Under the pieces are notes generated by a model. It had not been told where the DNA came from and made no database searches. It saw only the letters and a list, made by a program, of their open reading frames with translations. This document shows, piece by piece, positions 17,273 to 64,000 of a DNA stretch of 64,000 nt. This stretch comes from Heterodontus francisci (Eukaryota): contig NW_027140532.1 in NCBI RefSeq assembly GCF_036365525.1, positions 1 to 64,000 on the forward strand, written 5' to 3'. The position numbers and the translations under genes are program-made. Positions within the stretch are counted from its first letter, which is position 1. Each line of letters begins with the position of its first letter.

Positions 17273-17404
17273 AGTTCTTTAACATGTTGTTTTCTCTTCA
17301 ATCAGTCGTGAGACAGTTGCCACTTAATTCCAATAACAGCATTTATGTATGTAGTGTCCCAAGCTGCTTCACAGAAGCATTAGAAACCAAATAGGACACA
17401 GGCT

Positions 17405-18710
17405 GAATCTAATCGAGGTGTTCGGGTGGTTTATATATAGAATAACAGATACCCGGGAGTGAGTTACAGACTGGAATCTAATCGAGGGGTTCGGGTGGTT
17501 TATATATAGAATAACAGATACCTGGGAGTGAGTTACAGACTGGAATCTAATCGAGGGGTTCGGGTGGTTTATATATAGAATAACAGATACCTGGGAGTGA
17601 GTTACAGACTGGAATCTAATCGAGGGGTTCGGGTAGTTTATATATAGAATAACAGATACCCGGGAGTGAGTTACAGACTGGAATCTAATCGAGGGGTTCG
17701 GGTGGTTTATATATAGAATAACAGATACCCGGGAGTGAGTTACAGACTGGAATCTAATCGAGGGGTTCGGGTGGTTTATATATAGAATAACAGATACCCG
17801 GGAGTGAGTTACAGACTGGAATCTAATCGAGGGGTTCGGGTGGTTTATATATAGAATAACAGATACCCGGGAGTGAGTTACAGACTGGAATCTAATCGAG
17901 GGGTTCGGGTAGTTTATATATAGAATAACAGATACCCGGGAGTGAGTTACAAACTGGAATCTAATCGAGGGGTTTGGGTGGTTTATATATAGAATAACAG
18001 ATACCCGGGAGTGAGTTACAGACTGGAATCTAATCGAGGGGTTCGGGTAGTTTATATATAGAATAACAGATACCCGGGAGTGAGTTACAGACTGGAATCT
18101 AATCGAGGGGTTCGGGTAGTTTATATATAGAATAACAGATACCCGGGAGTGGGTTACAGACTGGAATCTAATTGAGGGGTTCGGGTAGTTTATATATAGA
18201 ATAACAGATACCCGGGAGTGAGTTACAGACTGGAATCTAATCGAGGGGTTCGGGTAGTTTATATATAGAATAACAGATACCCGGGAGTGAGTTACAGACT
18301 GGAATCTAATCGAGGGGTTCGGGTAGTTTATATATAGAATAACAGATACCCGGGAGTGAGTTACAGACTGGAATCTAATCGAGGGGTTCAGGTGGTTTAT
18401 ATATAGAATAACTGATACCTGGGAGTGAGGTACAGACTGGAATCTAATCGAGGGGTTCGGGTGGTTTATATATAGAATAACAGATACCTGGGAGTGAGGT
18501 ACAGACTGGAATCTAATCGAGGGGTTCGGGTGGTTTATATATAGAATAATAGATACCCAGGAGTGAGTTACAGACTGGAATGTAATCGAGGGGTTCGGGT
18601 GGTTTATATATAGAATAATAGATACCCGGGAGTGAGTTACAGACTGGAATCTAATCGAGGGGTTCAGGTGGTTTATATATAGAATAATAGATACCCGGGA
18701 GTGAATTACT
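17405..18710. repeat. 69-bp tandem repeat, ~19 copies, in NOP9 intron 2
   Basis: Unit GAATCTAATCGAGGGGTTCGGGTGGTTTATATATAGAATAACAGATACCCGGGAGTGAGTTACAGACTG; starts at 17405, 17474, 17543 ... 18647. Confidence 0.97.
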
Positions 18711-27627: not shown

Positions 27628-27662
27628 GTGAGGAGGAACCCCCAGGAGGAGTGGGCTATGAT

Positions 27663-27910
27663 AATAAATGGGTCAGAGGGGGTTAAGGAGGGTCCCGATC
27701 GAGGGTATAAAATATTAAATGGGACAGAGAGGGTTAAGGAGGGTCCCGATCGAGGGTGTAAAATATTAAATGGGACAGAGAGGGTTAAGGAGGGTCCCGA
27801 TCGAGGGTGTGAAATATTAAATGGGACAGAGGGGGTTAAGGAGGGACCCGATCGAGCGTGTAAAATATTAAATGGGACAGAGGGGGTTAAGGAGGGACCC
27901 AATCGAGGGA
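27663..27910. repeat. 51-bp minisatellite, ~5 copies, in NOP9 intron 8
   Basis: Unit AAATATTAAATGGGACAGAGAGGGTTAAGGAGGGTCCCGATCGAGGGTGTA. Confidence 0.92.
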
Positions 27911-28907: not shown

Positions 28908-29752
28908 GGGGTGGTGGAAAGGCCGAGGGAGGGAGCTCAGCGAGCATTGCCCTCCTGAGTCGGCCCGCTGGAGCCCGTGCCGCCATCTTTGCGCCCTCGA
29001 TAGACCCGACCTGTCGCCACCGGATTTAAACGCGTCGTTCAGAAGAGGCGGAATTTTAATCCCGCCTTCACTCCGCGCGTGGGGGCTCCTTCACGTCACG
29101 TTTCCCAGTGTCAAAGGCAGCAGCAACTGATGAGAGAGAGAGAGAGACAGTCATTTCCTGCCGGTGTCTTCAGACCAATAGAAACCCGGCCTCTCCCCGA
29201 GGGCAGGATCCCGAGGATTTACCAGCAGCCGCCAACCTACGCCGACGTGGCCTGGCGATTAATCTCTAGCTGACCTTGTTCAGACCGCGTCCCCGCTCAC
29301 AGGGCCTGGCCAGTGGACTCAAAGGGGCAGGCCTGGCTAAACGCAGCTCCACCTTCACAGCTAAACATGACCGTGGTGCAGACTTCTCCCGAGCAATGCC
29401 ACTGGAGGTCAGTCTCTAATGCAGCCCCTCCCCAGGATCTGCACTGGAATTAAAGGGGCGGTGCCCTCTCCACATTGACAGTTGAACACGGCACGTGCTG
29501 AAATATCGCAGGATTTGTTCCAGGGTTTTGGTTATAAAATATCACCCAGCTGAGGCCGCGTTCCATCGGGAATGTTTTATTATCTGATCAGAGTGGGTAA
29601 ATTGTACAATAAAGGTTTTCATTGATATACACAGGGAGACAGACCATGATTGGCTAAGCCAAGGTAATGTTGTTTTGATATAAACACCTTGTCACATTTC
29701 TCAGGAACATCCCAACAAACCGCACAGCCAATACAAATACCTTGAAACACAG
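28908..29752 (+). repeat. Left copy of ~0.83 kb inverted duplication (NOP9 3'UTR + truncated SINE end)
   Basis: Reverse complement aligns to 49731-50550. Confidence 0.95.
29608..29613 (+). terminator. NOP9 polyadenylation signal AATAAA (antisense AATAAA at 29576-29581)
   Basis: TGTACAATAAAGG, ~700 nt after the stop, with a UGUA element immediately upstream. Confidence 0.75.
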
Positions 29753-40373: not shown

Positions 40374-41203
40374 GTCCGTCAGTTTGGAACCGCTTCTTCC
40401 CTTATTTATTGACCTTTTTTTTTTGTCCTCGCGGGATGTGGGCGTCACTGTTGCCCTTGACAACTGAGCGGCTTGCCGGGTCAGAGGGCAGTTAAGAGTC
40501 AGCCGCATTGCAGTGGGTCTGCAGTCGCACGTAGGCCAGACCGGGTAAAGAACGGCAGATTTCCTTCCCGAAAGGACATTGGTGAACCGGACGGGTTTTT
40601 ACGACAATCAATGATAGTTTCACAGCATGCACTCTCAATGTCAGGCGTTTAATCAATTGAAGTGAAACTCCATGGGGTTTGAACCCGTATCACCACAGCT
40701 TCTGGATTGATAGTCCAGGGGTGTTACCACTCCCTGGTCTACCAGTGAGCCGAAGATTGACAGCATAGGCAGGGAGTCTGAGACCCCCAAACCAGAGGCC
40801 CAAACAAACTGTCTTCATCAGAGCAGAAAAATCCCTCAGTCCAGCTCTTCGGTTGCTCATTCACCGTCCATTTCAGTGACAAACAGCCTCAGCTAACCTC
40901 AGTTCCCAGGTTCAGGGTCACGGTCAAGGGTGAAGCAGGATGTCGGCCCACCGAGACTTCCCTTTGGTTCGAGCAGTGACGGGCGCGGAAATGGAAGAGG
41001 TTTTGTTTTTTTTCCCATCCGTCTCCGTCCCTGCCAATCGGGAAAGCAGGTCAGGGGCAAGGGGGGAGGTGCAAAAAAAGGTACTGGACAAGTGCCCCCG
41101 CAAAGCTCAAAATCAGCCTGTATCATGCAATTACAGCAAATGAGCAGAGGGGCTGCAGCCCTGGGAACAGTGCAGAGGGAGCTTTACTCTGGATCTAACC
41201 CCG

Positions 41204-44200
41204 TTTTTTTTTCTTTTTTCTTTTTTCTGTTTTTTTTTTTGTTTGTTTTTTCACAAGGTGGCCTTTATTCCTCAGGCCCCCTTTATGTACATATTTACAG
41301 TTTTAAAATAACTTTATTAAAACCAGATAAATAAACAAAAAAAACTCAAATTAAAATGCCATTCTCGGCGTCGACGATGCACTCCAGTCCCTGCGCTGCC
41401 CACCGGTCGCGGAAGGCCTCAAGCGTTCCGGCGGACACCGCATGCTCCTTCTCCAGGGACACCCGGGCGCGAACGTAACCGCGGAAGAGGGGCAGGCAAT
41501 CGGGGAGGACGGAACCCCCGACGGCCCGCAACCTGGACCTGTGAATTGCCACCTTGGCCAGGCCCAGGAGCAGACCGACGAGGAGATCCTCCTCCCGGCC
41601 CAAGCCCCTCCGCACCAGGTGCCCAAAGATCAGGAGCATGGGACTGAAGTGCAGCCAGAATTTGAGGAGCAGCCCCTTCAGATACTCAAAGAGGGGCTGC
41701 AACCTCGCACACTCCGTATAAACGTGGAACACGGACTCGTCCAGGCCGCAGAAAGTACAGGCGGCCTGGGAGTCCGTGAACCTACTTAAAAGTCTATTGC
41801 ACGGGACTGCTCTGTGCAGCACCCTCCACCCCAGGTCCCCGATGTAAAGGGGGAAGACTCCCGCGTAAAGAGACCTCCATCGGGGTTTCCTCTCGCCGCC
41901 AGATGGCAACGCGGACCGCCAGGGCATGTCCGGCCGGCTGACGAAGGCGAGGAAGTGGAGAGTGTGCAGGAGCAGCCCGTACAGGAAACCCCTCCGCGCC
42001 GATTGGAATGGATCGCCCCGCACTCCCGAGCCCCCTCGCCACCCGCAGTGAGGGGCGTCCCGGGGGTTTCGGCTACTCCTCCGCCCGCCGGACCGTCCCC
42101 GGAGTCGGCCGCCCGGACAGCCGAGGCGCTCTCCTCCGCCGGCGGGGGAGCGCCCTGACTGGAGGCGACCATGTTCCAGACTCGGAATAGATCCCGGTAA
42201 AAGACAGGCAACTCCCTCAGAGAGGCGCGGCTAACGGACTCCACCGGGAGCTGCGTGTCGTCTTGAAGGCAATGACACTGGCAGAAAAAATACGTCGCCA
42301 GCGCACACCATCTGGGAGGACGCTCGACGTACAAGTATCTCTGCAGGGTCCGAAGGCGGAGAGTCGCAGCCTGGGTGCGGAAGCACACCAGCGACTGACC
42401 GCCCTCCTCGATCGGGAGACTCAGGACTGCGGCAGAGACCCAGTGTTTCCTCTTGCCCCAGAGGAAATCGACGAGTTTCTTCTGGATCTTGGTGGCAAAT
42501 ACAGGGGGCGGGGCCAAAGTGACCAACCGGTACCACAACATGGAGGCCACCAGTTGGTTTATGACCAACGCTCGGCCCCTGTAGGAAAGCACTCGGAGCA
42601 GTCCTGTCCAGCGCCCCAGCCGAGCGGTGACTTTCACCTCCAACTCCTGCCAGTTTGCCGGCCAGGCTTCCTCAGCGGGGCTAAGGTGGACTCCCAGATA
42701 GAGGAGGTGCGTGGTGCTCCACGCAAAAGGTGTCATCTCCTCCGGCAGGGAGTCCACCCGCCACTGACCAACCAGGAGTCCAGAACATTTCTCCCAATTG
42801 ATCCTCGCGGAGGACGCGGCAGAAAAGGTCTGCTGGCAGTCGCACATCCTCCGCAAGTCAACGGGATCTGTGATTGCGAGGAGCACGTCGTCGGCGTAAG
42901 CCGAGAGGACGACCCGCATGGCCGGCTCGCGCAGAGCCAATCCCGTCAACCTCCTGCGAAGCAGGCACAGGAAGGGCTCCACACAGATGGTATACAATTG
43001 GCCGGACATGGGGCACCCCTGACGCACTCCTCTCCCAAATCGAAGGGGCGCCGTCAAGGACCCGTTAACTTTGACTAGACACTCTGCGGCGGCGTATAAA
43101 AGTCGGACCCGGGCCACAAAATGCGGCCCGAGTCCGAAAGCGCGCAGAGTCCCGAAAAGGTAATCGTGATCCACCCTGTCGAACGCCTTCTCCTGATCGA
43201 GGGAGAGAAAGGTGACCGACTGACCAGTCCTCTGGGAAAGATGGATCAGGTCCCGGACCAGGTGGATGTTGTCCTGGATGGACCGGCCCGGGACCGTGTA
43301 GGATTGGTCGGGGTGGATCATGTGGGCCAGCACGGAGCCCAGGCGGGGAGACATAGCCCGGGCAAAGATCTTATAATCTGTGCTGAGGAGGGAGACCGGA
43401 CCAGTTTTTAAGCAGGCGGAGATCGCCCCTCTTCGGCAGCAGGACGACGACCGCCCTGCGCCACGAGAGGGGCATCTCCCCGGTCGCCAGGCTTTCCCCC
43501 AGGACCCGCGCGTTATCGTCTCCCAGGACGTCCCATAATGCCCTGAGGAACTCCACGGTCAACCCATCCAGCCCTGGGGATTTGTCCCTTGAGAGCTGGT
43601 GGAGGGCGCCGGTCAGCTCCGCCAACGTGAGCGGAGCCTCCAATCCTTCGGCGCCCTCCGGGGAGACCTGCGTCAGGTCCTCCCACAAAACTCTGCGCGC
43701 ATCCTCGCTGGACGGATCCGGAGAGAACAACGCACTGTAATAAGTACGGACCAGGAGGCCCATTCCCTCCGGATCCGTGATGGAGGATCCGTCGTCGGCC
43801 AGCAGCTCAACGAGCTGCTTACGGACCCCCCGCCATTTTTCCAGCGAGTAGAAGAAGGGTGAGGCGCGGTCCAAATCTTCCAGGATCTGGATCCGCGACC
43901 TCACGTGCGCGCCTCGGGACCCTATGAGCTGCAGGTCCCTCAGCGCGCCCTTCTTCTCTTTGTACGCCTGCCACAGGGCCGGGTCAGCGACGGCATGACC
44001 GAGGCGGGACTCCAAGTCGAGCACCTCTCTCTCAAGGCGCCCGATCTCGGCTTCCCACCTCTTGGTCGACCCCTTCGCGTACTCCTGACAGAAGACGCGG
44101 ATGTGAGTCTTGCCCACATCCCACCATAGCCTCAAGGAGGGGAAGCCCCCCCGCTTCCTTCTCCAGTCGGCCCAGAATCGACAGAACGAGTCCCGAAATC

Positions 44201-45722
44201 GCTCGTCCTCAGCAGCCGGTTGTTAAAGTGCCAGTACGCGGACCCCGCCCGCGTGCGGAGCGGAGTGAACTTCGCCCACACCAGGCGGTGGTCCGAGCAC
44301 AGCACCAGCCGCATGGAGGCCGCCGAGACGCGGGAGACTTACACCTGCGAAATGTAGAGGCGGTCGATTCGCGACCCCCCTCCTCCAGACCTCCACGTGA
44401 AGGCACTGGAGTCGGGATGGAGATTCCGCCAGACGTCCACCAAGTTAAGGGAGCTGATCAGTCCCCTCAACTTCTCCACTGACGCTTGGCCGTGCTGGGG
44501 ACCAGAGCGATCCCCCACCTCGAGGGTGCAGTTAAAATCCCCCCCGAGGATGATGCACTCGCCGCTATCGATGGAGCTCAAGAGAGCGGACACTTCTTCA
44601 AAGAAGCGCGCTTGCAACGCGCCGGGCCTGGGCGCGTACACGTTCACAAAGTGGAGCGGCACGCTACCCAGGCGAACGGCGAGGTGGAGCAAGCGGCCCG
44701 GCACTAGCTCCTTGACCCCCAAGATCTCCGGCTGAAAAGTCGGGGCCAACAAGATAGCCACCCCACTAGAAATAGGGGTGAGGTGACTCATGTAGACCCC
44801 ACCCTGCCACTCCAGGAGCCAGGTGGCTTTGTCTCCCGGAACGGTGTGGGTTTCCTGCAGAAAGCTCACTGCGTATCTCCCTTCCCTAAGGACTGAGAGA
44901 TTGTGAAATCTGCGGTGAGACAACCTCGGCCATTGCCTTTACACAGGCCTCTATAGACATATTGGGGTGGGGATAGCTCTTTACCCCATGGCTTGAAGTA
45001 ATTAATTTAAAAAGTGACGGGGTCTCACGGGTGGCCACAGAGGCTACAGCCGCATAGGTATGAGAAGGCCCCGCCACTGGTGATGATGGGCTTGCCATGG
45101 CTCAAGAGCCAAACCCACCCCCAATTTGCAGGTAAGCAAACAAACAAACAAAGAAACCAACTAGTAGGTTTGGGGAGAGGCTGAGGGTATACAAGAAATG
45201 GGAAAGACAGGCTGCTAGCGATGACTTTGCTTTTTTTCCTCTTAAAGGGTGGTACTCAGAGCACTGTAACACTTCTGGTCTTCCGGTCTTCTGGTTGTGG
45301 GAGGGGTCTTCACCTGGGTCAGCCGAAAGCTGCCCAGGCTCTAGTTCGATCCTTATGTCTCTATTAGCCAGGCAGCTTCAGCTGACTCAGGCTGGGCAAT
45401 TGGGGTGGGGAGGGAGCTTCCCTGCAACTTTAGTGCAACTGCACAGCTCCCTACAGAATTGTACAGCCCCCACCCCTTGTTCTTCTGGCCTCTTTCACCT
45501 CCCACAACAGTCCAAATGAAATGAAAGTTTGGTGCTCGACACCCACCTCGAAATACAGCCTTTTTCAAAGTCTTTCCTCCTCTGCAGCAAAAGTTGTTGA
45601 AAGGTTTTTTGCAGTTCCCTCCTCAGCTCTCCCTCTCCAGCAGCACCTCCAGCAACCGACTGCAGCACTGTCAGCTGCACCTCTTTGAGGCACTCAGTAT
45701 TCCCAATCAGAGAGGAGCCAAT
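41204..45722 (-). mobile_element. Tx1-clade non-LTR retrotransposon, internally deleted and frameshifted, in CIDEB intron 3
   Basis: ORF1 N-terminus (44886..45098) fused to APE (FLQETH, GGDFNC, SRIDRLY, SDH); RT (LDQEKAFDRVDH, GVRQGCPMSG, SAYADD); C-terminal CTFC...H...C zinc finger; AATAAA (41264-41269) and poly(A) tail (41204-41251). Confidence 0.9.
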
Positions 45723-45953
45723 CCCCGTGCTATACCTGTCCTGGGAGTGTTTGATGTGGACAGTGTAGAGGGAGCTTTACTCTGTATCTAACCCCCCGTC
45801 TTTTTTTTGTTTTTTTTTCTGTACCTGTCCTGGGAGTGTTTGATGGAGACAGTGTAGAGGGAGCTTTATTCTGCATCTAACTCCATTCTGTACCTGTCCT
45901 GGGAGTGTTTGATGGGGACAGTGTAGAGGGAGCTTTACTCTGTATCTAACCCA
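45723..45953 (+). repeat. 69-bp repeat (CTAACCCCGTGCTGTACCTGTCCTGGGAGTGTTTGATGGGGACAGTGTAGAGGGAGCTTTACTCTGTAT), ~3 units; more units at 41160-41203, 48478-48550 and 55738-55864(-)
   Basis: Direct reading of the repeated units. Confidence 0.9.
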
Positions 45954-45980
45954 TAATCGGGTGCTGACTTTGTATTACAG

Positions 45981-46168
45981 AGGGGAATGGTTTCGTACTC
46001 ACTGACCCAGAAACCTAAGAACACAAAAGACATCGCCCGAATCACCTTCGACATCTACAAGCTCAACCCAAAGGACCTTTTTGGCTCCCTCAACATCCGG
46101 GCCACCTTCTACGGCCTGTACTCCATGACCTTTGACATCAAGTGTCTTGGTCCAAAGAAGGTCATCAG
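45981..46168 (+). CDS. CIDEB: CIDEB exon 4 (CIDE-C)
   Basis: KDIARITFDIYKLNPKDLFGSLNIRATFYGLYSMTFDIKCLGPKKVIR; the LFGSLN/GPKKV motifs favour CIDEB over CIDEA/CIDEC. Confidence 0.96.
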
Positions 46169-46299
46169 GTAAAATGGCGGGATGGAAGCCAAGTCACTCT
46201 CTGTGTGGGCGGGAGAAGGGAGGGCGGAGGCCTGCAGAGAATGACCCATCCATCAGTGTCCCAAAGCCCTACATGTGCAGCCAGGTTCGTTCAGTCACA

Positions 46300-46985: not shown

Positions 46986-48585
46986 ATTGTATTATGATTT
47001 TCTGAATGTCCTGCCACTACCTGTTCAATAATGTATTCTAATATTTTCCCAACAACAGATGTTAGGCTAACTGGCCTATGGTTTCCTGTGTTCTGTTTCC
47101 TTTCTTGAGTAGAGGTGTTACATTTAAAGTTTTCTAATCTTCTGGGACCTTTCCAGAATCTAGGGAATCTTGGAACATTAAAACCAATGCATCCACTTCT
47201 TTTAAGACCTGAGGATGTAGGCCATCTGGTCCAGGGGACTTGTCAGTATTTAGTCCCATTAGTTTTTTTTCCTCTTTAGCACTGAAACAGGCCCTTCAGC
47301 CCATCGAGTCCGTGCCAACCAACAATCACCCATTTATACTAATCCTACATTTAATCCCATATTCCCTACCACATCCCCACCATTCTCCTACCACCTACCT
47401 ACACTAGGGGCAATTTACAATGGCCAATTTACCTATCAACCTGCAAGTCTTTGGCTGCGGGAGGAAACCGGAGCACCCGGCAGAAACCCACACGGTCACA
47501 GGGAGAACTTGCAAACTCCGTACAGGCAGTACCCAGAACTGAACCCGGGTCGCTGGAGCTGTGAGGCTGCAGTGCTAACCACTACGCCGCCCACTGTTTT
47601 GCTTGTACTGTTTCTCCAGTGATAATGATTGTTTTAAGTTCCTTCCTCCCTTTGGTCTCTTGGTTTCCTACTAGTCTTGGGATGCTTTGTGTGTCTTCTG
47701 CTGTGAAGATGGATACAAAATACGTGTCACCATCACTCTGTAAGCACGCCGATGTACACAGCAAGATCCCACAAGCGACAGTGAGGTGAAATGGCAACTC
47801 AATCTGATTTTTGGTAATGTTGGTTTGCGGGATAAATATTGGGCGCAGGACACCAGGGAGAACTCCCTTGCCCTTCTTTAGATAGTGGCGGTGGGATCTT
47901 TTACGTCCAACCTTGGCTTGAACGTCTCATTTCAAAGACGGCACCTCCGGCAGCCCAGCCCTCCCTGCACGTTATTTGTAAGCACAGCGACTAATGAAGG
48001 GACTTTACTCACGGGCAGCAGCAGCAGAGGAAAGTGGCTGAGGCCTTTGGTCAGAAAAGGAGCAACGGACACCAACAGGCCTGAGGCCTACAATCATGGG
48101 CGGCAACAAAACCGAGCAGGCCCCGAGGACCAAACAAGCAGTGCTCATCGGAACAGCAAAATCCCTCAATCCGGCTGTTCCATCGCTCATTTAGGAATCA
48201 CTGCTTGTTTCAGTGTCAAACAACCTCAGCCAACTTCAATTCCCAAGTTTAGGCCACAGTCAACCCAGCCCACAGGCTCGCCGAGGCCTCTGTTTGGGTT
48301 CAGCAGCGACCAACGCAGAAACAGAAGCTGTTTTCCTTCCATCCTCGTCCCTCCCAGTTGGCGAGATCTGGCAAAGGGCAACAAGAGTTGCAAAAGAAAA
48401 GATACCTGACAGAGCCCCACGCAGCTCAAAATCAGCCTGTATCGTGTAGTTACGGTAGATGAGCAGAAAGGCCATTGCCCTGGGAGTGTTTGATGGGGAC
48501 AGTGTGGAGGGAGCTTTACTCTGTATTTAACCCCGTGCTGCACCTGTCCTTGGATCTAACTCGACCTGTGTTTTTATTGTTGTAG

Positions 48586-49730: not shown

Positions 49731-50550
49731 CTGTGCTTCAAGGTATTTGTATTGGATGTGCAGTTTGTTGGGATGTCCCTGAGAAATGTGACAAGGTGTT
49801 TATATCAATACAAGATTACCTTGGCTTAGCCAATCATGGCCTGTCTCCCTGTGTATATCAATGAAAACCTTTATTGTACAATTTACCCACTCTGATCAGA
49901 TAATAAAACATTCCCGATGGAACGCGGCCTCAGCTGGGTGATATTTTATAACCAAAACCCTGGAACAAATCCTGCGATATTTCAGCACGTGCCGTGTTAA
50001 ACTGTCAATGTGGAGAGGGTACCGCCCCTTTAATTCCAGTGCAGATCCTGGGGAGGGGCTGCATTGGAGACTGACCTCCAGTGGCATTGCTCGGGAGTAG
50101 TCTGCACCACAGTCATGTTTAGCTGTGAAGATGGAGCTGCGTTTAGCCAGGCCTGCGCCTTTGAGTCCACTGGCCAGGCCCTGTGAGCGGGGACGCGGTC
50201 TGAACAAGGTCAGCTAGAGATTAATCACCAGGCCACGTCGGCGTATGTTGGCGGCTGCTGGTAAATCCTCGGCATCCTGCCCTCGGGGAGAGGCCGGGTT
50301 TCTATTGGTCAGAAGAAACCGGCAGGAAATGACTGGCTCTCTCTCTCTCATCAGTTGCTGTTGCCTTTGACACGAACGACACTCGATGTGCAGAGTTAAG
50401 GCAGGATTTAAATTCCATCTCTTCCTAACGACGTGTTTCAAATCCGACGGCGACAGGTAGAGGGTGCGAAGATGGCGACGCAGGCTCCTGCGGGCCGACT
50501 CAGGAGGACGATGCTCGCTGAGCTCCCTCTCCCGACCTTTCCACCACCCC
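49731..50550 (-). repeat. Right (inverted) copy of NOP9 3'UTR, lacking NOP9 coding sequence
   Basis: Reverse complement of 28908-29752; homology ends ~5 nt short of the NOP9 stop codon. Confidence 0.95.
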
Positions 50551-52646: not shown

Positions 52647-54822
52647 CCAGTACTGAGGGAGTGCCGCATTGTCGGAGGGTTAGTACTGAGGGAGTGCTGC
52701 ACTGTCGGAGGGTCAGTACTGAGGGAGTGCCACACTGTCAGAGGGTCAGTACTGAGAGAGTGCCACACTGTCGGAGGGTCAGTACTGAGGGAGTGCTGTA
52801 CTGTTGGAGGGTCAGTACTGAGGGAGTGCCACACTGTCAGAGGGTCAGTCCTGAGGGAGTGCCACACTGTCGGAGGGTCACTACTGAGGGAGTGCCACAC
52901 TGTCGGAGGGTCAGTACTGAGAGAGTGCCACACTGTCGGAGGGTCAGTACTGAGGGAGTGCTGCACTGTCGGAGGGACAGTACTGAGGGAGTGCCGCACT
53001 GTCGGAGGGTCAGTACTGAGAGAGTGCCACACTGTCGGAGGGTCAGTACTGAAGGAGTGCCGCATTGTCGGAGGGTCAGTACTGAGGGAGTGCTGCACTG
53101 TTGGAGGGTCAGTACTGAGGGAGTGCTGCACTGTTGGAGGGTCCGTACTAAGGGAGTGCTGCACTGTCGGAGGGTCAGTACTGAGGGAGTGCTGCACTGT
53201 TGGAGGGTCCGTACTGAGGGAGTGCCGCACTGTCGGAGGGTCAGTACTGAGGGAGTGCTGCACTGTCGGAGGTTCAGTACTGAGGAAGTGCTGCACCGTC
53301 GGAGGGTCAGTACTGAAGGAGTGCCACATTGTCGGAGGGTCAATACTGAGGGAGTGCTGCACTGTTGGAGGGTCAGTACTGAGGGAGTGCTGCACTGTTG
53401 GAGGGTCCGTACTGAGGGAGTGCTGCACTGTTGGAGGGTCCGTACTGAGGGAGTGCCGCACTGTTGGAGGGTCAGTACTGAGGGAGTGCTGCACTGTCGG
53501 AGGTTCAGTACTGAGGAAGTGCTGCACTGTCGGAGGGTCAGTACTGAAGGAGCGCTGCACTGTCGGAGTGTCAGTACTGAGGGAGTGCTGCACTGTTGGA
53601 GGGTCAGTACTGAGGGAGCGCTGCACTGTCGGTGGGTCAGTACTGAGGGAGTGCTGCACTGTCAGAGGATCAGTACTGAGGGAGTGCTGCACTGTCAGAG
53701 GGTCGGTACAGAGGGAGTGCTGCACTGTCGGAGGGTCAGTACTGAGGGAGTGCTGCACTGTTGGAGGGTCCGTACTGAGGGAGTGCTGCACTGTCGGAGG
53801 GTCAGCACTGAAGGAGTGCCGCATTGTTGGAGGGTCAGTACTGAGGGAGTGCTGCACTGTGGGAGGGTCAGTACTGAGGGAGTGCTGCACTGTCGGAGGG
53901 TCAGTACTGAGGGAGTGCTGCACTGTCGGAGGGTCAGTACTGAGGGAGTGCTGCACTTTCGGAGGGTCCGTACTGAGGGAGTGCTGCACTGTCGGAGGGT
54001 CAGTACTGAGGGAGTGCCACACTGTGGAAGGGTCAGTACTGAGAGAGTGCCACACTGTCGGAGGGTCAGTACTGAGAGAGTGCCGCATTGTCGGAGGGTC
54101 AGTACTGAGGGAGTGCTGCATTGTCGGAGGGTCAGTACTGAGGGAGTGCTGCACTGTTGGAGGGTCCGTACTGAGGGAGTGCCGCACTGTTGGAGGGTCA
54201 GTACTGAGGGAGTGCTGCACTGTCGGAGGGTCAGTACTGAAGGAGCGCTGCACTGTCAGAGGATCAGTACTGAGGGAGTGCTGCACTATCAGAGGGTCGG
54301 TACAGAGGGATTGCTGCACTGTCAGAGGGTCAGTACTGAGGGAGTGCTGCACTGTCAGAGGGTCGGTACAGAGGGAGTGCTGCACTGTCGGAGGGTCAGT
54401 ACTGAGGGAGCCCTGCACTGTGGGAGGGTCAGTACTGAGGGAGTGCTGCACTGTCGGAGGGTCAGTACTGAGGGAGTGCTGCACTGTCGGAAGGTCAGTA
54501 CTGAGGGAGTGCTGCACTGTCGGAAGGTCAGTACTGAGGGAGTGCCGCACTGTGGGAGGGTCAGTACTGAGGGAGTGCTGCACTGTTGGAGGGTCAGTAC
54601 TGAGGGAGTGCTGCACTGTCGGAGGGTCAGTACTGAGGGAGCCCTGCACTGTGGGAGGGTCAGTACTGAGGGAGTGCTGCACTGTCGGAGGGTCAGTACT
54701 GAGGGAGTGCTGCACTGTCGGAGGGTCCGTACTGAGGGAGCGCTGCACTATCGAAGGGCCTGTACTGAGGGAGCGCTGCACTGTCGGAGGGTCAGTACTG
54801 AGGGAGTGCCGCACTGTCAGTG
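52647..54822. repeat. 33-bp minisatellite, ~66 copies, embedded in a Deu-type SINE (~52530-55100)
   Basis: Unit GTACTGAGGGAGTGCTGCACTGTCGGAGGGTCA; SINE head upstream and SINE body downstream. Confidence 0.97.
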
Positions 54823-55566: not shown

Positions 55567-55879
55567 ACGGGAGAAAGAGAAGGGTAAAGTTTGACTTTCA
55601 GATGAAATTTTTCACTGCCGATTATTTACTTGCAAGGTCGCAGAATGTCGTGAGGTCGTGTGTGTTGCCAAACACATCAAAGAGTCGGGCTTTTCTGCTG
55701 GGGAAATGAACTGTGAGCTCCATGGCCCGTCAAAAATTCCCAGGACAGGTACAGCAAGGCAAAAAAAAAAACGGGCGTTAGATACAGAGTAAAGCTCCCT
55801 CTACGCTGTCCCATCAAACACTCCCAGGACAGGTACAGTACGGGGTTAGATATAGAGTAAAGCTGAAGCTATATCAGAA

Positions 55880-60216: not shown

Positions 60217-61820
60217 ACACTGTATTCCCCAGGCGTTCGAACTGTATTCTCCTGGCTGTCTGACTGTATTCTCCTGATATCTGACTGTATTCTCCTGGCT
60301 GTCTGACTGTATTCTCCTGATCTCTGACTGTATTCTCCAGGCTCTCTGACTGTATTCCTGCTCTCTGACTGTATTCTCCTGGCTCTCTGACTGTATTCCC
60401 TGCTCTCTGACTGTATTCTCCTGATCTCTGACTGTATTCTCCTGGCTCTCTGACTGTATTCTCCTGGCTGTCTGACTGTATTCTCCTGATATCTGACTGT
60501 ATTCTCCTGGCTGTCTGACTGTATTCTCCTGATCTCTGACTGTATTCTCCAGGCTCTCTGACTGTATTCCTGCTCTCTGACTGTATTCTCCTGGCTCTCT
60601 GACTGTATTCCCTGCTCTCTGACTGTATTCTCCTGATCTCTGACTGTATTCTCCTGGCTCTCTGACTGTATTCCCTGCTCTCTGACTGTATTCTCCTGAT
60701 CTCTGACTGTATTCTCCTGATCTCTGACTGTAGTCTCCTGGCTCTCTGACTGTATTCCCTGCTCTCTGACTGTATTCTCCTGATCTCTGACTGTATTCTC
60801 CAGGCTCTCTGACTGTATTCCCCAGGCGTTCGAACTGTATTCTCCTGGCTGTCTGACTGTATTCTCCTGATCTCTGACTGTATTCTCCTGGCTGTCTGAC
60901 TGTATTCTCCTGATCTCTGACTGTATTCTCCAGGCTCTCTGACTGTATTCCCTGCTCTCTGACTGTATTCTCCTGGCTCTCTGACTGTATTCCCTGCTCT
61001 CTGACTGTATTCTCCTGATCTCTGACTGTATTCTCCTGGCTCTCTGACTGTATTCCCTGCTCTCTGACTGTATTCTCCTGATCTCTGACTGTATTCTCCA
61101 GGCTCTCTGACTGTATTCCCTGCTCTCTGACTGTATTCTCCAGGCTCTCTGACTGTATTCTCCTGGCTCTCTGACTGTATTCCCTGGCTCTCTGACTGTA
61201 TTCTCCTGGCTGTCTGACTGTATTCTCCTGATCTCTGACTGTATTCTCCTGGCTGTCTGACTGTATTCTCCTGATCTCTGACTGTATTCTCCAGGCTCTC
61301 TGACTGTATTCCCTGCTCTCTGACTGTATTCTCCTGGCTCTCTGACTGTATTCCCTGCTCTCTGACTGTATTCTCCTGATCTCTGACTGTATTCTCCTGG
61401 CTCTCTGACTGTATTCCCTGCTCTCTGACTGTATTCTCCTGATCTCTGACTGTATTCTCCAGGCTCTCTGACTGTATTCCCTGCTCTCTGACTGTATTCT
61501 CCAGGCTCTCTGACTGTATTCTCCTGGCTCTCTGACTGTATTCCCTGGCTCTCTGACTATATTCCCCTGGCTCTCTGACTATATTCCCCTGACTGTATTC
61601 TCCTGGCTCTCTGACTGTATTCCCCTGGTCTCTGACTGCATTCCCCTGGTCTCTGACTGTATTCTCCTGGCTCTCTGACTGTATTCTCCTGGCTCTCTGA
61701 CTGTATTCTCCTGGCTCTCTGACTGTATTCCCCTGGCTCTCTGACTGTATTCCCTGGCTCTCTGACTGTATTCCCCTGGGCTCTGACTGTATTCTTCAAG
61801 CTCTCTGACTATATGCTTCA
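60217..61820. repeat. ~21-23 bp minisatellite (CTCTCTGACTGTATTCTCCTGG) with higher-order structure
   Basis: Direct reading; variant unit CAGGCGTTCGAACTG at ~60230 and ~60823. Confidence 0.95.
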
Positions 61821-62269
61821 GGCTTTCTGCTTGAATTCCCCAGGTTGGCCGACTATATTATCCAATCCACAGGTTCTGAATTCCTGGGATTGGCGTGAAC
61901 TGACCTGACTTCCCTCAGCTTCTCCCCTTCTCTCCGCTGGTGTCCGGGGACATCGCAGCTGCAGGCCTTCACCGAGGCTGCTCAACAGCCCGCCACCCCT
62001 CCCCCCATGTCAGATCGTTCGAAATCAAAACATGGTGCCGTGCATTCTGGGACCTCCTTAATGTGGTCGCCGTGTTTATTTAATGTCTGCTCAGTCAAGT
62101 GTCAATAAAGTTATTACAATTATTGATGTGTTGAGCGTGCTCCTGGTGAAATGAGGACGGCGAGTACAAGCCTGCGGCGCAAGATCTCTTGGCACATTGT
62201 CGCACTCTAACGCAGACCCGTTTGCGCTGTTCTCATTCAGACCCTATCCCCTTTCACGGGCAACGTTAG

Positions 62270-63224: not shown

Positions 63225-64000
63225 GAAATACATAGATACAGAGACAGAGAGAAGATAGATAGAGAGAGAGAGAAAGACATAGAGTGACAGAGATAGTGAG
63301 TCAGAGAGAGAGATGGAGATATTCAGAGACAGAGAGTGACAGAGATAGTGAGTCAGAGAGAGAGAGAGATATACAGAGACAGAGAGTGACAGAGATAGTG
63401 AGTCAGAGAGAGAGAGAGAGAGAGATATACAGAGACAGAGAGTGACAGAGATAGTGAGTCAGAGAGAGAGAGAGAGATATACAGAGACAGAGTGTGACAG
63501 AGATAGTGAGTCAGAGAGAGAGAGAGAGAGATATACAGAGACAGAGAGGGACAGAGATAGTGAGTCAGAGAGAGAGAGAGAGAGATATACAGAGACAGAG
63601 AGGGACAGAGATAGTGAGTCAGAGAGATGGAGATATTCAGAGACAGAGAGTGACAGAGATAGTGAGTCAGAGAGATGGAGATATACAGAGACAGAGAGTG
63701 ACAGAGATAGTGAGTCAGAGAGATGGAGATATACAGAGACAGAGAGGGAAAGAGATAGTGAGTCAGAGAGATGGAGATATTCAGAGACAGAGAGTGACAG
63801 AGATAGTGAGTCAGAGAGATGGAGATATACAGAGACAGAGAGGGACAGAGATAGTGAGCCAGAGAGATGGAGATATACAGAAACAGAGAGGGACAGAGAT
63901 AGTGAGTCAGAGAGATGGAGATATTCAGAGACAGAGAGTGACAGAGATAGTGAGTCAGAGAGATGGAGATATACAGAGACAGAGAGTGACAGAGATAGTG
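63225..64000. repeat. GA-rich ~48-bp tandem repeat running off the window end
   Basis: Unit ACAGAGACAGAGAGTGACAGAGATAGTGAGTCAGAGAGATGGAGATAT with variable (GA)n. Confidence 0.93.

Follow-up and report, generated by a model that had tools for sequence, protein, structure and literature searches.

A young Tx1-clade retrotransposon specific for a 69-bp minisatellite unit and its probable role in carrying that target to new sites

A 64,000-nucleotide (nt) stretch of DNA from the shark Heterodontus francisci (contig NW_027140532.1; hereafter the window, whose coordinates are used throughout) contains a retrotransposon of the Tx1 clade that splits one unit of a dispersed 69-base-pair (bp) minisatellite, and isolated poly(T) tracts lie in other units of the same repeat. 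The locus raises the question of whether the element is specific for this repeat, and of what the poly(T) tracts represent. An earlier note on this DNA had proposed that the family targets the minisatellite, that the insertion had duplicated a CCCCG pentamer, and that the tracts are insertions consisting of the tail only. The present analysis indicates, with good but not complete confidence, that a young Tx1-clade long interspersed nuclear element (LINE) inserts at CTAACCCCG/TGCTG (the slash marks the cut) and carries the repeat to unrelated sites, likely by means of read-through RNAs that are reverse-transcribed by its own enzyme.

Full copies of the element are about 6.5 kb long and consist of a 5' untranslated region (UTR), an open reading frame (ORF1) of about 630 amino acids (aa), and ORF2 of about 1250 aa. 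ORF2 carries an N-terminal APE endonuclease domain (PF03372, E 3.5e-17) and a reverse transcriptase (RT) domain (PF00078, E 2.4e-34); a CCHC knuckle motif in ORF1 (zf-CCHC, E 0.035) and a C-terminal zinc finger motif in ORF2 (zf-RVT, E 0.0002) are present, both scoring below the Pfam cut-off. ORF2 is 54% identical to Tx1L of Xenopus laevis (YTX2_XENLA, P0006) over 95% of the query, and the two fell in one clade with a Shimodaira-Hasegawa-like approximate likelihood ratio (SH-aLRT) support of 100 in a quick, midpoint-rooted tree of 21 of 121 proteins with no L1 outgroup. The closest labelled relative, P0037 (Heterodontus francisci), is 92% identical over 35% of the query, and ray proteins are 72-73% identical. 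Domains, identity to Tx1L, and tree grouping all agree with the Tx1-clade membership proposed earlier, and poly(A) tails, 5' truncation, and target-site duplications were each found among the copies. Median identity was 98% over 82 RT hits, and the RT frame is unbroken for at least 1200 aa in 18 of 116 long loci; judged by these sequences, the family is young. Older subfamilies with diverged 5' ends occupy the same target site.

Specificity was assessed from the flanks of 40 copies scored among 990 candidates, from which the window copy and its paralog on another contig (G000:C34:16.40-16.44 Mb, hereafter C34) were removed, and the remaining 38 copies were classified by eye. Twenty-eight lie at the repeat cut site CTAACCCCG/TGCTG and three at the look-alike site formed by the 5' junction of an older copy; three are at unrelated sites with carried repeat, three at unrelated sites without repeat, and one is off position. 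Thus 31 of 38 copies are on target, the motif is present as a flank in 34 of 38, and unrelated flanks, whose prevalence in a flank tabulation had been named as evidence against specificity, are a minority (6 of 38). Kojima (2015) regards a family as target-specific when one sequence type makes up more than 20% of its flanks, a proportion that the 31 of 38 copies exceed. Across the genome of 6.0 Gb, exact junctions of target plus T8 numbered 947, compared to none for the reversed control pattern, and T8 starting at 23 other unit positions was found in five places, one of them really at CCCCG (this count used a different anchor from the 947); poly(T) tracts stand at this position of the unit far more often than chance would give. 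Among fetched loci (designated L), 194 of 195 T tracts adjoining the repeat share one orientation. When loci chosen by the filled pattern were excluded, the tract began at the exact base in 116 of 143 cases and within 2 nt in 136 of 143; in loci chosen by the empty pattern, 11 of 14 tracts began at the exact base. Empty junctions of one variant numbered 2400, and the 27-mer core of the repeat has 21,452 copies, a figure that is a minimum for the number of repeat units. Junction matches cluster near the ends of large contigs (contigs among the matches listed). Taken together, these data make it almost certain that the element is specific to a single position within the 69-bp repeat, and to a single orientation, as the earlier note had claimed. 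The target is a 69-bp tandem unit and not U2 small nuclear RNA (snRNA), the criterion for Keno. Two repeat loci gave no Rfam match, so the minisatellite lacks an Rfam-matching head there, and its ends are variable; both differ from a classical short interspersed nuclear element (SINE). Sequencing runs from four other organisms contain the element end together with the repeat, and one joins the 3' UTR to an A tract before the target; these contigs lend weak support to the association.

The two ends of the insertions were then compared. Nine of 15 truncated copies have a duplication of 11-15 bp (seven detected by script and two by eye), one has a 7-bp duplication, and five have none; the on-target truncated copies duplicate the terminal part of the repeat unit. 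Among 60 full-length copies with both ends, CCCAG stands at the 5' junction in 20, and in none of these 20 is a matching CCCAG found at the 3' junction; the pentamer therefore belongs to the element. The proposal that CCCCG is a target-site duplication was rejected on this ground, the real duplications being 11-15 bp long. The 113 exact 5' ends of one subfamily comprise 59 in which the pentamer is followed by a TGCTGT-like sequence and 43 in which it is followed by a T tract, and six of the other 11 were fetched and proved to be variants of the same junction. The 5' pentamer thus travels with the element, rebuilds the target, and is cut again, with 43 of 113 5' ends hit a second time. The idea that full-length copies carry a constant 5' extension of one unit found no support, as arrays past the 5' junction stop at various positions. 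No full-length copy was encountered that combined an unrelated site with a duplication.

These junctions bear on whether the association reflects enzyme specificity at all, since a few source elements residing beside the repeat could have transduced it everywhere. Transduction is indeed frequent, and full-length copies lack the long duplication that would prove local cleavage; however, truncated copies at L109, L115, L121, L127, and L131 duplicate the local repeat itself and run on into TGCTG, the same motif is cut again at the 5' junctions described above, some off-target sites resemble the motif (CACCG/TGCTG, CCCTG/TGTGG), and a T tract at that same base sets the window apart from its C34 paralog. 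Hitch-hiking of this kind is consequently a very remote prospect.

The poly(T) tracts provided evidence of what is inserted. AGUAAA is a variant poly(A) signal, and the repeat unit contains AGTAAA in the RNA sense. In a set of 105 T tracts followed by repeat, the repeat resumes 10-30 nt past AGTAAA in 57 and 1-9 nt past it in 20, with peaks at 11, 16, and 23 nt; six resume within AGTAAA, 14 at a duplication-sized offset from the cut, and eight elsewhere. In 77 of the 105, the resume point lies 22-51 nt upstream of the cut, farther than any measured duplication. Most isolated tracts thus do not have the look of tail-only insertions; they run into partial repeat units, mostly 11-23 nt beyond AGTAAA, in the way expected of polyadenylated read-through RNA. 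The AATAAA of the element's 3' UTR lies in the loop of a predicted GC hairpin (full copy; z -4.2 on L008), followed in many copies by a second predicted hairpin with TATAAA in its loop, and this location may favour read-through. The end of the 3' UTR (window 41252-41300) resembles the GTAGAGGGAGCTTTA stretch of the repeat on the same strand; it is present in two hairpin copies of about 45 bp, which provide two alternative 3' ends. At L115, L125, L126, L197, and L219, target T tracts are followed by short unrelated or element-internal sequence, which suggests that other RNAs were inserted in trans or transduced there.

Repeat was also found at unrelated places in the genome. At 11 loci (L100, L101, L117, L147, L148, L183, L185, L278, L291, L301, and L303) a T tract plus repeat occupies an unrelated site and is bracketed by a duplication of 10-15 bp. 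The 3' end of the element stands behind the repeat in 10 of the 11; L185 has some four units and lacks element sequence altogether. New empty junctions are present within L148, L183, and L185, and L101 carries only 9 nt of repeat. For an independent sample, one resume point occurring in 120 places genome-wide was taken, the first 30 loci of which form 28 clusters; the left flank is unrelated in six, and all six have a duplication, two of them being already known. The 11 bracketed loci therefore argue that the family disperses its own target, and we consider spread of the target by transduction likely, though less secure than the specificity itself. The earlier note had named, as a finding that would overturn it, the possibility that the 69-bp sequence is part of the element; the repeat proved not to belong to the element, yet it frequently travels with it, so that the objection holds in part, and in an unexpected way.

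The alternative put forward at the outset, in which the tracts are aborted tail-only insertions into a passive target spread by DNA-level processes, accounts for a portion of these observations. The 14 tracts at a duplication-sized offset fit it, an automated test with imprecise boundaries detected a duplication in none of the 59 arrays that have no leading T tract, and both T tracts in the window resume at or near the cut site, although these two alone do not permit assignment to the tail-only or the read-through class. It does not explain the 77 tracts that resume far upstream, the repeat set between duplications at the 11 unrelated sites, or the T tracts at element 5' junctions that are followed by repeat for which the local site offers no source (L039, L041, L047, L049, L129, L222, and L227), and as a complete account it is already refuted by L185 and L117. 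Tail-only insertion probably holds for a minority of the tracts, and a passive target is an improbable explanation of the whole. Somewhat less improbable, yet still unlikely, is the alternative that independent polyadenylated minisatellite transcripts were mobilised in trans, the repeat being a non-autonomous retroposon. The absence of element sequence at L185 speaks for it, as does a very high word depth on the repeat in a run from another organism (guessed to be RNA, but possibly DNA); the element 3' end behind the repeat in 10 of the 11 bracketed cases, and the lack of an Rfam head in the two repeat loci, speak against it. Such transcripts are compatible, as an added source, with dispersal of the target by read-through RNA of the element.

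Several observations weigh against dispersal by the element. Specificity is loose, with six of 38 copies at unrelated sites and one off position, and the loci were best-scoring or first-listed matches, not a random sample. The five truncated copies mentioned above lack a findable duplication, as do the candidate transductions at L180, L208, L158, and L202; L208 was dropped as an off-target case, because its paralog L248 has a repeat unit at that place. The 10-30 nt window was set after the data were seen, and the 23-nt peak coincides with a genomic AAA and could reflect internal priming. Blocks of T tract plus partial unit were later amplified in tandem at L133, L257, and L286, so the resume-position counts are not independent; such blocks form new 45-53 bp tandem arrays at these loci and at G000:C47:2215969-2217588. 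Lastly, the 59 arrays without a leading T tract also count here: most arrays, on that result, show no sign of retrotransposed origin. In the array-boundary test, which split clusters badly, two of nine T-led arrays had a duplication, compared to a control mean of 0.8. It is a tentative and rather doubtful proposal that the LINE founded most dispersed arrays by transduction, with transcripts starting in upstream repeat, ending at the repeat's AGUAAA, and adding sites in each round; if true, the 21,000+ repeat units would be a niche built by the element, and LINE and minisatellite a self-feeding pair.

The window copy itself, with the repeat units around it, is composed as follows:

41160-41203, plus strand: left half of one minisatellite unit (69 bp), up to and including the cut-site sequence CTAACCCCG
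41204-41251, minus strand: degenerate poly(A) tail of the element
41252-41345, minus strand: 3' UTR of the element
41346-44921, minus strand: ORF2 (APE endonuclease, reverse transcriptase, zinc finger)
44919-44921, no strand: 3-bp microhomology fusing ORF2 of one subfamily to ORF1 of another
44920-45098, minus strand: first ~60 codons of ORF1, second subfamily
45099-45722, minus strand: 5' UTR, second subfamily
45723-45727, plus strand: element-borne pentamer at the 5' junction, which rebuilds the target and is not a target-site duplication
45728-45953, plus strand: three minisatellite units with a T tract at 45799-45818
48479-48550, plus strand: empty unit in a local duplicate of the insertion-site flank
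55738-55864, minus strand: two units with T11 at the cut position (55761-55771), a tract common to the C34 paralog

The junctions, T tracts, and empty unit were found where the earlier note had placed them. The cut-site sequence CTAACCCCG occupies 41195-41203 and the T-rich tail begins at 41204, while the 5' junction reads GAGCCAAT-CCCCG at 45715-45727, followed by TGCTATACC. ORF2 is broken by frameshifts, by a 113-bp deletion near 42010, and by loss of its first ~14 codons. From 30569 to 64000 the window is 95-99% identical to C34 over the stretch compared, C34 apparently being either the other haplotype or a recent duplication; this second copy suits comparisons of filled and empty sites. 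The flanks are about 99% identical and the 3' 3.7 kb of the element 98%, whereas the 5' 0.8 kb is only 76-85% identical to C34 and its 5' UTR up to 99% identical to other 5' ends, the two parts of the window copy being of different subfamilies. Relative to a full copy, ~1.9 kb is missing (the greater part of ORF1 together with ~14 initial codons of ORF2) and is retained at C34. The simplest reading is that the window copy is a deletion chimera, in which a tandem insertion brought two subfamilies together and a subsequent deletion at the 44919-44921 microhomology fused them; alternatively, this junction may be an assembly error. The interval 44930-45720 was ruled out as an unrelated insert, as it is the 5' UTR and ORF1 start of the element.

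The flank upstream of the empty unit is 69% identical to that at 41100-41200 and is a local duplicate of the insertion flank; the empty unit therefore represents the pre-insertion state of a paralogous site. The T tract at 45799-45818 is preceded by CTAACCCCCCG and has no counterpart at C34; five base differences from C34 in the unit that follows the tract hint at a foreign unit. The tract at 55761-55771 reads A11 on the forward strand, within a minus-strand unit. Immediately after the array, 45960-46170 is a probable coding exon with a GT donor at its end, and the insertion may therefore be intronic.

These data can be combined in a mechanism. The APE domain would nick after CCCCG and prime on the poly(A) of the RNA, and a second nick 11-15 nt away would yield the duplication of truncated copies. 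Transcripts would often run past the poly(A) signals of the element and be cleaved within the downstream repeat, mostly 11-23 nt after AGUAAA. The cDNA would then read T(n), repeat, T(n), element, with an early stop leaving T(n) plus repeat alone, which would lengthen arrays on target and found new ones off target. Full-length copies end in a target-like pentamer, and the 5' junction is therefore itself a target at which clusters grow head to tail; the window copy would be one such cluster collapsed by deletion.

Elsewhere in the window there are tandem arrays of an unrelated 69-bp unit (19 copies) and of 51-bp, 33-bp (66 copies), 22/43-bp, and 48-bp units (17398-18709, 27661-27909, 52648-54818, 60219-61865, and 63413-64000). 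An inverted pair of 619 bp, 97% complementary, lies 20 kb apart (29134-29752 and 49731-50349).

What limits a target-specific LINE is usually considered to be the supply of safe sites in its host. The vertebrate family described here, which has intact copies that are 98% identical, would add sites in two ways, by transduction of its target and by an end that mimics it, which offers a testable route for the dispersal of a minisatellite; moreover, an APE-type endonuclease close to that of Tx1L with a short, definable target would be useful for studies of specificity. Searches of the open literature turned up neither this target nor any LINE seeding its own target; Repbase, the supplements of Kojima (2015), and papers under subscription lay outside this scope, and an earlier account of the element or target is possible.

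Target-specific Tx1 families are well known, unnamed satellites being among their targets (PMC4494074, PMC3747384, PMC4640811), and the targets listed in PMC4494074 include U2, (TC)n, (TTC)n, Mariner, Harbinger, long terminal repeat (LTR) elements, U5, 5S, and unnamed satellites. Keno, Kibi, Koshi, Tx1-Mar, and the satellite-targeting families resemble the shark element in clade and in preferring a multicopy target (PMC4494074); they differ in that the main text of that source includes no shark, and seeding of new targets was not met there. Tx1L is likewise a target-specific APE-type LINE of the same clade, but its target is the self-spreading DNA transposon Tx1D (PMC4494074), whereas the shark target is a tandem minisatellite moved by the LINE. 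Tandem insertion at regenerated sites, which the shark element shares, is described for SINEU-3 (PMC4494074). R2, co-transcribed with 28S rRNA (PMC4494074), is similar in its target-like 5' sequence and in lacking a long duplication where full-length copies join the target, but has an endonuclease of another class. Finally, 3' transduction, in which a read-through RNA receives its poly(A) downstream and is inserted together with the element, is also reported for L1, R7Ag, and R1Bm (PMC7265360). For R7Ag and R1Bm, this was reported in assays on ribosomal DNA targets, and the cargo of L1 is an arbitrary flank (PMC7265360), whereas the cargo of the shark element is the target itself, fixed at new genomic sites.

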